A stretch of DNA of 64,000 bases from the NCBI GenBank assembly GCA_963809325.1, contig CAWEIZ010000008.1, positions 126,165 to 190,164 on the forward strand. Reading direction: 5' to 3'. Position 1 is the stretch's first letter. Each line of letters begins with the position of its first letter. Shown here piece after piece: positions 19,612 through 20,317 of the stretch. Source of the stretch: an uncultured Actinomycetes bacterium. GTDB taxonomy: Bacteria; Actinomycetota; Thermoleophilia; Gaiellales; JAICJC01. The translations under genes were made by a program, and so were the position numbers. Below the pieces are notes generated by a model. It was given only the letters and a program-made list of their open reading frames with translations, was not told the DNA's origin and searched no databases.

Positions 19612-19625
19612 TGCCCTGCCTTGAC
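19612..19625 (+). repeat. Target-site duplication, right copy TGCCCTGCCTTGAC (overlaps putative lexA -35)
   Basis: Identical to 15423-15436. Confidence 0.9.
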
Positions 19626-19649
19626 TCCGTCCGACCCCTCTGCAACACT
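19621..19649 (+). promoter_or_regulatory. Putative lexA promoter: TTGACT-N17-AACACT with TG extension
   Basis: Canonical spacing just upstream of SOS box, AGGAGG RBS (19674) and GTG start. Confidence 0.6.
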
Positions 19650-19654
19650 TCGGA

Positions 19655-19670
19655 TCGAACACACGTTCGA
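19655..19670. promoter_or_regulatory. SOS (LexA) box TCGAACACACGTTCGA
   Basis: Perfect match to actinobacterial TCGAAC-N4-GTTCGA directly upstream of lexA. Confidence 0.9.
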
Positions 19671-19686
19671 CCCAGGAGGGCGACCG

Positions 19687-20317
19687 GTGGATCTGACCTC
19701 GAGACAGCAGGAGATTTTGGCGTACGTGAACACGCACGTCGACGAGCACGGCTACCCGCCGACGGTGCGCGAGATCGGCCAGGCGGTGGGGCTCACGTCG
19801 CCGTCGACCGTGCACGCCCACCTCGAGAAGCTCGAGAAGGCGGGCCTCATCCGGCGCGACGCAACCAAGCCGCGCGCGCTCGAGGTGATCGAGGGCGGGC
19901 GCTCCCGGCGCGGCTGCGGTGGTCGAGCTTGCGCCCCCGCGCCAGTCGACGATGCTCCCGCTCGTCGGCGAGGTTGCCGCCGGCTCCCCGGTGGTCGCCG
20001 AGGACCGGGTCGAGGACTACCTCGCCGTGCCCGACCAGCTCGCCCCCGACGCCGACTTCGTACTCACGGTCAAGGGCGACTCCATGGTGAACGCCGGCAT
20101 CCTCGACGGCGACCTCGTGGTCGTCAGAAAGCAGGACGACGCCCGAAACGGCGAGATCGTCGTCGCGCTCGTCGGTGACGAGGACGCGACCGTGAAGCGG
20201 TTCTTCCGCGAGGGCGGCCGCGTCCGGCTCCAGCCCGAGAACGACGCCCTCGAGCCGATGTTCCCGGACCAGGTTCAGATCCTCGGCACCGTGAAGGCGG
20301 TGCTGCGACGGCTGTGA
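19687..20317 (+). CDS. lexA: LexA repressor (frameshift near 19915)
   Basis: [25 protein letters not shown] cleavage site; GDSM and TVKR catalytic motifs. Confidence 0.95.

Follow-up and report, generated by a model that had tools for sequence, protein, structure and literature searches.

The window, the whole 64,000-nt stretch of DNA that was analysed (G+C content 71.5%), carries lexA and, directly upstream of it, a tandem array of elements separated by 14-bp units. Its relevant features are the following (TSD, target site duplication).

11567–11594, + strand: A-type terminus, right end of a more distal element (inverted- and direct-repeat search)
11595–11608, + strand: distal 14-bp unit CCGCCATTCTTGAC, in which TTGAC is kept and 6 of the other 9 positions differ from the proximal units
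11609–15422, no strand assigned: element 1, 3.8 kb long and bounded by A-type inverted repeats, adjoining the left TSD copy
15423–15436, + strand: left TSD copy TGCCCTGCCTTGAC, an exact match to the right copy
15437–19611, no strand assigned: element 2, a non-autonomous casposon remnant of 4,175 bp, missing from one metagenome contig
15437–15475, + strand: left B-type terminal inverted repeat, starting with GGGAGAGTAGATAGAGAGG (inverted-repeat search)
15456–16484, + strand: 5'-truncated cas1, likely start ATG at 15524
16427–19506, − strand: cargo gene present as two ORFs, 18316–19506 and 16427–18349 (Pfam)
19573–19611, + strand: right B-type terminal inverted repeat (inverted-repeat search)
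19612–19625, + strand: right TSD copy TGCCCTGCCTTGAC, ending in the first five bases of the −35 hexamer
19621–19649, + strand: putative lexA promoter (TTGACT, 17-nt spacer, AACACT)
19655–19670, + strand: SOS box TCGAACACACGTTCGA, a perfect palindrome
19687–20317, + strand: lexA, the sole lexA of the genome, assembled in two frames

The lexA junction and the elements next to it

The repeat that flanks element 2 is exact over 17 nt once the CCC from each inverted repeat is counted, and this 17-nt sequence is present in 2 copies in the window against 0.31 expected with up to 3 mismatches. CCC-N9-TTGAC-GGG occurs only twice in the 4.22-Mb genome (G000), both times inside the lexA array, and the 15-mer anchor TTGACTCCGTCCGAC is unique in that genome. 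Read directly, the promoter region consists of TTGACT (19621–19626), a 17-nt spacer (19627–19643) with TG at 19641–19642, and AACACT (19644–19649). The CGAAC-N4-GTTCG motif expected of a LexA-regulated promoter is found near it, at 19655–19670, and begins 29 nt past the right TSD copy; we take it to be an SOS palindrome of the Gram-positive/actinobacterial type. AGGAGG (19674–19679) and the GTG start of lexA (19687) follow. A first-pass annotation of this DNA had described a duplicated 14-mer ending in TTGAC, TTGACT-N17-AACACT, a perfect LexA box and the lexA start, all of which lie where it had placed them.

A scan for sigma-70 consensus sites (−35/−10 hexamers, 16–18 nt spacing) calls no promoter at the lexA junction (0 sites), because AACACT, a weak −10 box, fits TATAAT at only 3 of 6 positions; TTGACT agrees with the consensus at 5 of 6. 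The designation of TTGACT-N17-AACACT as the putative lexA promoter is based on conservation (see below) rather than on a transcription start.

Element 2 has inverted ends of 39 nt (82% complementary) that are located directly inside the TSD copies. The B-type terminus is also carried by G001, G004, G005, G009, G014, G020 and G041, and is common to the Cas1-bearing elements of G004 and G041. The ORF at 15456–16484 matches the Pfam family Cas_Cas1 (E = 1.4e-24) over profile positions 182–277 of 283 only. It shares 65% identity with the 525-aa Cas1 of another species of the genus on residues 219–504 only, and the window cas1 therefore lacks about the first 218 codons. It retains the C-terminal part of the Cas1 domain, a CxxC...CxxC zinc ribbon and a helix-turn-helix (HTH). 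The invariant Glu at alignment position 168, which by comparison with E. coli Cas1 would be the catalytic one, belongs to the missing N-terminal part; the protein is not a complete casposase with N-terminal domain and full catalytic set. It is the sole Cas1 match of the G000 genome (4.22 Mb, 98% complete), and no PolB match was found in the window or in this genome. As its cas1 is truncated and the genome encodes neither PolB nor a second Cas1, element 2 is not autonomous. Homology to other elements covers the first 33–40 nt of the terminus and, after a gap of about 70 nt, sets in again within cas1; this pattern indicates an internal deletion.

The cargo of element 2 is a beta-propeller plus SBP_bac_5 (solute-binding) protein, whose N-terminal part has no Pfam match. 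The reading frame changes near 18300–18400, and the two ORFs are probably one gene split by assembly indels. Run X2, one of four metagenome runs analysed (see below), lacks single bases at 18398 and 18415, and by frame arithmetic these two 1-nt gaps put both ORFs in one frame. In the same way, a 1-nt insertion near 19911 breaks the frame of lexA, which has one extra base there in comparison with four close relatives; this base is absent from both run X2 contigs and from the single run X3 contig spanning the position. The frameshifts of the window are probably assembly indels, with lexA itself intact. The lexA of G022 carries a separate 1-nt insertion.

Element 2, with its Cas1-family integrase, terminal inverted repeats, TSD of ~14–15 bp and occupied and empty sites, shows several of the features by which casposons are recognized. 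Judged from its sequence, it is the dead and decayed remnant of a casposon that belongs to a large bacterial lineage; it would either have decayed after inserting or have been mobilized in trans. It is also the newest, lexA-proximal unit of a stack of tandem elements. The next unit, element 1, has 29-nt ends (11609–11637 and 15394–15422, 97%) and carries an unknown 352-aa ORF, an MFS transporter and an ECF sigma factor with a SnoaL domain, but no cas1; its right 2.9 kb share 96% identity with the lexA-proximal element of G023. A relationship between this 352-aa ORF, which lies terminally in element 1, and a 342-aa neighbour of the G004 cas1 was considered and rejected, the two being unrelated. 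The truncation of cas1, the missing PolB and the membership of an array had been overlooked in the first-pass annotation.

Evidence for mobility comes from Logan contigs of four metagenome runs (X1–X4) that were aligned to positions 15300–20400, which they cover in part. One contig of run X4 (record 25, 405 nt, depth 5.6) spans 15300–15419 and 19609–19791 and joins 15419 to 19609, so that 4189 nt are skipped. The 17-nt repeat is single at this joint and fits both sides, and the N9 of the empty site is the same as that of the window. The insertion of element 2 is therefore polymorphic, and element 2 is NEVERTHELESS a discrete mobile unit; the unit absent from the X4 contig is the lexA-proximal one. 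Pieces of element 2 were also found in run X2, without differences from the window.

Reuse of the lexA promoter within the genus

The order element end, N9TTGAC, then TCCGTCCGAC was found in 15/15 of the genus genomes fetched and in 5/5 more, i.e., in all 20 in which the region is assembled; three further genomes, in which the contig breaks at the lexA junction, were left out (G015, an unpublished genome, enters this count and the cas1 count given below but supports no other statement). In the 20 genomes, the element end is located 14 bp upstream of TTGAC|TCCGTCCGAC, conservation starts exactly at TTGAC|TCCGTCCGAC and the nine preceding bases are variable. All 20 loci have TTGACT-N17-[AC]ACACT, with TTGACTCCGTCCGAC invariant, and a CGAAC-N4-GTTCG SOS box upstream of lexA. 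A leader-like recognition sequence, as had been proposed, fits with this abrupt onset of conservation after nine variable bases.

The elements themselves are diverse. At least six terminus types are found in the genus, most of which finish with ...CCC and start with GGG.... Two to four tandem elements separated by identical 14-mers are present in G012, G013, G014, G019 and G020. Where the 14-mers of an array differ (G000, G001, G004, G005 and G019), the diverged one is the most distal unit seen; the divergence along the G004 array is not monotonic if contig C9 precedes contig C8. All G000 junctions are at lexA. The G005 array includes an inverted internal junction with a foreign 14-mer, which is read as the joint movement of two elements in one composite, and G004 harbours very small elements with A-type ends (~350 bp on C8 and <100 bp on C9).

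The N9 is uniform within an array yet differs between close relatives, such as G000 (TGCCCTGCC) and G023 (CTCCGTCGC), whose lexA genes share 97% identity. A simple duplication model fails to explain these differences. Some N9 variants recur between genomes: the distal one of G004 is that of G022 and the distal one of G001 is that of G021. An exchange of array segments by recombination or transfer is suspected from these recurrences. G021 was considered as an ancestral empty site of the genus and rejected, as the 2.4 kb upstream match, in inverted orientation, an internal part of the G019 array at 90% identity; its end resembles ends found in G013 and, in the window, near 6402–6433.

Only 5/31 genus genomes encode a Cas1. 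Most array units are therefore non-autonomous, and the identity of their mobilizing enzyme is inferred. G013 carries a 16-kb element adjacent to lexA, with A-type ends, identical flanking 14-mers, a cas1 and a fragmented polB. The B-type element of G004, whose array 14-mer is the same as that of the G004 lexA junction, encodes the 525-aa Cas1 and carries polB remnants, with a small ORF between cas1 and polB that shows a weak HNH match below the Pfam cut-off; its cargo includes two ATPases of the OLD family, a UvrD helicase and genes for type I restriction. G041 has two copies. One, at locus L038, belongs to an intact Cas1+PolB casposon located ~3.1 Mb from lexA, with a 14-bp TSD (GGCCGCACGCGCAC) that lacks TTGAC. 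The other (L039) is a decayed cas1 within the array, 12 kb upstream of lexA. It was examined as a possible counterpart of the window cas1 in a conserved short form of the protein; this was rejected, L039 being a partial, frameshifted and decayed copy with a different truncation, and both genes are treated as remnants. The cas1 of G043 lies on a contig other than that of lexA, and no element ends were found for it. PolB is recovered as one continuous match in G041 and as three adjacent pieces in G043; these matches come from tblastn with a PolB of the family, the PF03175 profile having given one sub-threshold match (G043) in five genus genomes.

Outside the genus, no element was found upstream of lexA in 12 genomes from other genera of the same order. 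TTGAC-nCCGTCCG, followed at about promoter spacing by a box of the TAnnCT or TAnnnT type, is present in 6/12 of them and CGAAC-N4-GTTCG upstream of lexA in 12/12. The retention of these boxes at element-free lexA genes supports TTGACT-N17-AACACT as the lexA promoter and shows the CCGTCCG stretch to be a host feature that is older than the insertions. A tRNA gene (tRNA-Leu by eye) is located ~60–90 bp upstream of lexA in most of the 12 genomes. This gene was considered as the true target and rejected, the window containing no tRNA; its best G000 match is on contig C2, with 2 mismatches in a 30-mer. The lexA promoter, named as the integration target in the first-pass annotation, is a genuine and reused one, as borne out by the 20/20 genus genomes, the empty-site contig of run X4 and the unoccupied orthologous promoter of other genera. 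The statement of that annotation that insertion leaves the core promoter intact also stands, and the SOS box is likewise untouched by the Cas1 element.

These data could alternatively be viewed as a variable island generated by homologous recombination, gene transfer or another recombinase, of which the cas1 fragment would be mere cargo. Most array units indeed lack cas1, the array content is mosaic and shuffled between relatives, and N9 variants are common to several genomes. However, each unit has exact 14-bp direct repeats right next to its inverted ends, the presence/absence joint is precise and keeps one repeat copy, and cas1 and polB of distant phyla are flanked by ends and repeats in the same arrangement. 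Furthermore, the window encodes no tyrosine recombinase (G000 has three Phage_integrase matches, on contigs C7 and C2) and Pfam identified no transposase among the ORFs tested. An origin without any transposition is therefore extremely unlikely.

A widespread casposon family that probably targets −35 boxes

The Cas1 of these elements belongs to a family of 3,677 proteins (E ≤ 0.001 among 8,000 scored), mostly of 500–530 aa, that carry a C-terminal CxxC...CxxC zinc ribbon and an HTH. The best sequence match among solved structures is the M. mazei casposase 6opm (E = 2.5e-17). A genome scan gave 79 loci in Acidobacteriota, Chloroflexota, Actinomycetota, Gemmatimonadota and other phyla, and a PolB homologue adjoins cas1 in 66 of them. 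Full-length relatives, with both the zinc ribbon and HTH on Cas1 and a PolB of the protein-primed type, are found in Acidobacteriota, Chloroflexota and Actinomycetota. For example, a Tunturiibacter chromosome carries a 12.7-kb element that encodes Cas1 and a DNA_pol_B_2 PolB and has inverted ends and a 14-bp TSD.

Both the inverted ends and the TSD could be delimited in 24/79 loci. The TSD ends in TTGAC in 18 of these 24 clean-ended loci and does not in the other 6. TAnnnT is found 17–19 nt after TTGAC in 15/18, against 78/2539 (3.1%) of the background TTGAC sites of the same loci, and nAnnnT in 18/18 against 14.5%; these loci are not independent, several sharing an orthologous promoter, and represent at least eight unrelated spacers. 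The downstream gene is valS in three loci, a gene for a DUF4932/TPR protein in three others, and in one locus each a gene for a TPR protein, a thiolase, trigger factor, a peptidase M28, a GAF protein or an Rrf2 regulator. lexA is the downstream gene in the in-genus locus only. Two casposases that use different promoters in one genome share 69% identity. From the junction sequences, targeting of the −35 TTGAC is read as a family-wide trait and the particular promoter as lineage-specific.

This rule bears on the proposal, made in the first-pass annotation, that insertion is gated by the SOS response, access being controlled by LexA bound to the SOS box or by promoter-bound RNA polymerase, so that insertion would be coupled to DNA damage. 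The cut is located within the −35 hexamer, 29 nt from a perfect SOS box, where occupancy could plausibly affect access, and every array of the genus lies at one SOS promoter. However, the same geometry is found at the promoters of valS and of the trigger factor, thiolase, peptidase M28, GAF protein and Rrf2 regulator genes, none of which is, to our knowledge, a recognized SOS gene. In the survey of cas1 loci, lexA was within 10 kb of cas1 in just 1/79. As casposons are inserted at the −35 boxes of other genes, it is the −35 box, not LexA, that is the common denominator. The family-wide rule removes the basis for a lexA-specific SOS link, which appears unsupported, and we regard such a gate as highly improbable.

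The casposase might also find its site through the promoter-bound RNA polymerase holoenzyme rather than through the DNA sequence alone, and in favour of this, TTGAC and a −10-like box at promoter spacing are the sole common features of the targets, the spacers being unrelated between target genes. Against it stands the use of one promoter per lineage: all the G000 junctions and 20/20 genus genomes are at lexA. Moreover, the casposases that use different promoters in one genome are only 69% identical, and both observations fit a sequence specificity encoded by the protein. The HTH was also compared with known domains. Sigma-70 region 4 reads TTGACA, and the HTH was considered as a mimic of it. 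This idea was dropped, no sigma-4 match being present among the matches listed. Pfam gives weak matches to HTH_31 and HTH_24 (E = 0.03–0.15). An AlphaFold model of the C-terminal 166 residues (pLDDT 86.2) retrieved XRE/Cro-type proteins with Foldseek (Aca11, AcrIIA15-N and C-proteins), with a probability of up to 0.99 and E-values ≥ 0.2. The predicted HTH thus resembles XRE/Cro rather than sigma region 4, with weak E-values, and recognition through the holoenzyme is considered improbable.

The preferred reading is that positions 19612–19689 mark where a casposon-family transposon is joined, on its right-hand side, to its target, the lexA promoter, −35 targeting being family-wide and lexA the promoter used by this genus; we give it a probability of about 0.8.

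A model for casposition at promoters and its significance

By analogy with the casposases of Aciduliprofundum boonei and Methanosarcina mazei, the staggered integration can be viewed as follows. The casposase, with its Cas1 domain, zinc ribbon and XRE-like HTH, would join the 3' ends of the element to the target at positions staggered by 14 bp on its two strands; one of the cuts would separate base 5 from base 6 of the −35 hexamer. Gap repair would then duplicate N9TTGAC, and the −35 box would be rebuilt beside its own spacer, −10 box and SOS box; lexA would therefore retain its core promoter. The promoter DNA located just past the cut (TCCGTCCGAC...) may act as a leader-like anchor. As only the lexA-proximal repeat keeps this anchor, new elements would stack at lexA while the older ones move outward. 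The anchor and the proximal stacking are proposed from the conservation at the junctions and from the systems compared below.

The CRISPR adaptation machinery is presumed to descend from casposons, and the lexA arrays share several traits with CRISPR spacer integration: Cas1-family chemistry, duplication of a fixed repeat beside a conserved leader, and an ordered array in which the repeats farthest from the leader are older and more diverged. Unlike in CRISPR, the inserts are kilobase-sized transposons instead of ~30-bp spacers, Cas2 is lacking, the 14-bp repeat has only 5 fixed bases and the promoter fires away from the array. Tn7 uses TnsABC+D and inserts in the glmS terminator region (attTn7) with a 5-bp TSD. 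Like Tn7, which is also cited in PMC4046053, the elements described here use a safe harbour beside a conserved essential sequence, leave the gene undamaged and form tandem islands; the enzyme, the chemistry, the target and the TSD length differ.

The closest systems are other casposons. As in family 2 (A. boonei and M. mazei), the site-specific target consists of a duplicated segment and a leader-like sequence, the TSD is of 14–15 bp, the target is regenerated and only TSDs separate tandem elements, according to the portions available of PMC5137440, PMC6614799 and PMC9939771. Whereas the target described in those portions is the 3' end of a tRNA gene, the present elements insert at the upstream edge of a promoter. 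Their hosts are bacteria and their arrays are longer than those described for family 2, with mostly decayed or non-autonomous units and mixed end types. Family 3 is exemplified by AceAut-C1 of Ca. Acetothermum autotrophicum, which has the order Cas1-ZBD-HTH and whose family PolB is placed within family 2 in the accessible text of PMC4046053. As described there, family 3 casposons share with the present elements a C-terminal zinc-binding domain and HTH on Cas1, a PolB, a weak HNH ORF (in G004), terminal inverted repeats, a TSD of ~14–15 bp and bacterial hosts. They differ in that the PolB here matches the protein-primed Pfam family and that the lineage is far larger (3,677 proteins). As the comparison is by description and the domain order alone matches AceAut-C1, membership of family 3 is not established.

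The targets listed in the accessible text of Krupovic et al. 2014 (PMC4046053) are aEF-2, tRNA 3' ends and ten 'intergenic' sites, and that text makes no mention of promoters. In the searched literature, no casposon was found to be described at a promoter or at lexA, nor one from Acidobacteria, although the TSDs of Table S1 of Krupovic et al. 2014 may include one that ends in TTGAC. The remark of the first-pass annotation that it knew of no casposon at lexA agrees with this search. As far as the available portions of this literature go, promoter −35 boxes are a target class of casposons that was not found described there.

A more general view would be that of a large undescribed lineage of bacterial casposons for which promoters are landing pads: the −35 TTGAC would always be cut and the promoter rebuilt, each lineage would use the promoter of a conserved gene, and elements would accumulate beside it in the sequence of their arrival, much like spacers next to a CRISPR leader. 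In its boldest form, promoter occupancy, by RNA polymerase or in this genus by LexA, would couple casposition to the transcriptional state or to the SOS response. This view, taken in full, is speculative and we hold it to be unlikely.

The lexA locus is thus a hotspot of bacterial casposons at a defined regulatory element that is reused in every genus genome examined, and its arrays follow a leader-repeat principle like that of CRISPR. The rule that the TSD ends in the −35 TTGAC, found in at least three phyla, provides a simple and testable recognition code for a Cas1 integrase, and such an enzyme, site-specific and with a target that is short and known, would be of interest for DNA-insertion tools. 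The cargo of the elements includes defence genes, namely a Gabija-like OLD ATPase with a UvrD helicase, type I restriction-modification and a caspase-Sel1 protein. Stacks of casposons beside promoters may therefore constitute one kind of defence island in soil bacteria.

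Probable extent of the array and the lexA side of the window

At 6400-6450, the window carries an inverted junction, in which a 14-mer (CCATCTGATTTGAC, minus strand) adjoins an F-type terminus similar to element ends found in two other genomes of the genus, G013 and G021. This junction and its terminus indicate that the array or island probably reaches to at least about 6.4 kb. The G+C content of the window is lower between about 3 and 19.6 kb. Near the start of the window, a Gly-rich ORF (107-1522) consists of 9-nt periodic GGC-type repeats, which form a 71-nt family in 23 copies.

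Compared with four close relatives, lexA contains one extra nucleotide at 19905-19915 and is therefore split into two frames. A base at 19912 or 19914 is absent from contigs of two other runs. This insertion is probably an assembly indel. The cargo gene of element 2, the casposon remnant inserted at the putative lexA promoter, is likewise divided at 18316-18420, where it reads as two overlapping ORFs; in the metagenome run X2, 1-nt gaps at 18398 and 18415 put both frames in register. Directly past lexA lies a small ORF (20320-20556) with two CxxC pairs, whose predicted product appears zinc-ribbon-like.

A proposed composite, miniature elements and a secondary-site casposon in relatives

In G005, an inverted internal junction (locus L049, about 13213-13271) carries a 14-mer, CCCGTCCGTTTGAC, unlike the local one; it is read as a composite of two elements from another array that were transposed together. 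G004 harbours two miniature elements that are MITE-like derivatives.

Miniature elements of G004, both with A-type ends and N9TTGAC units on their flanks
L035 (contig C8), 5114-5466: about 350 bp
L036, about 3900-3969: less than 100 bp

An intact casposon encoding Cas1 and PolB lies 3.1 Mb from lexA in G041 (L038, 924-16977). Its target-site duplication is GGCCGCACGCGCAC and its termini are altered (GAGAAAACAG...); its insertion point is a secondary, non-TTGAC site.

Cargo, tRNA neighbour and variation of the duplication unit

Defence-type genes are abundant in casposon cargo (L036 of G004, 4151-20000; L034 of G013; L066) and include OLD-family ATPases with a UvrD helicase, a Gabija-like pairing. 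A caspase-Sel1 protein is also encoded there, as are type I restriction-modification genes.

The tRNA adjoining lexA in other genera, which we read as tRNA-Leu, has its best match in G000, the genome of the window, on another contig (C2:938399-939960), with 2 mismatches in a 30-mer. A tyrosine integrase gene is located about 1 kb downstream of this match.

Among the loci of the genus, the nine variable bases of the 14-mer are unlike between close relatives, yet some of these variants recur in unrelated genomes: the distal unit of G004 carries the variant of G022, and the distal unit of G001 the variant of G021.
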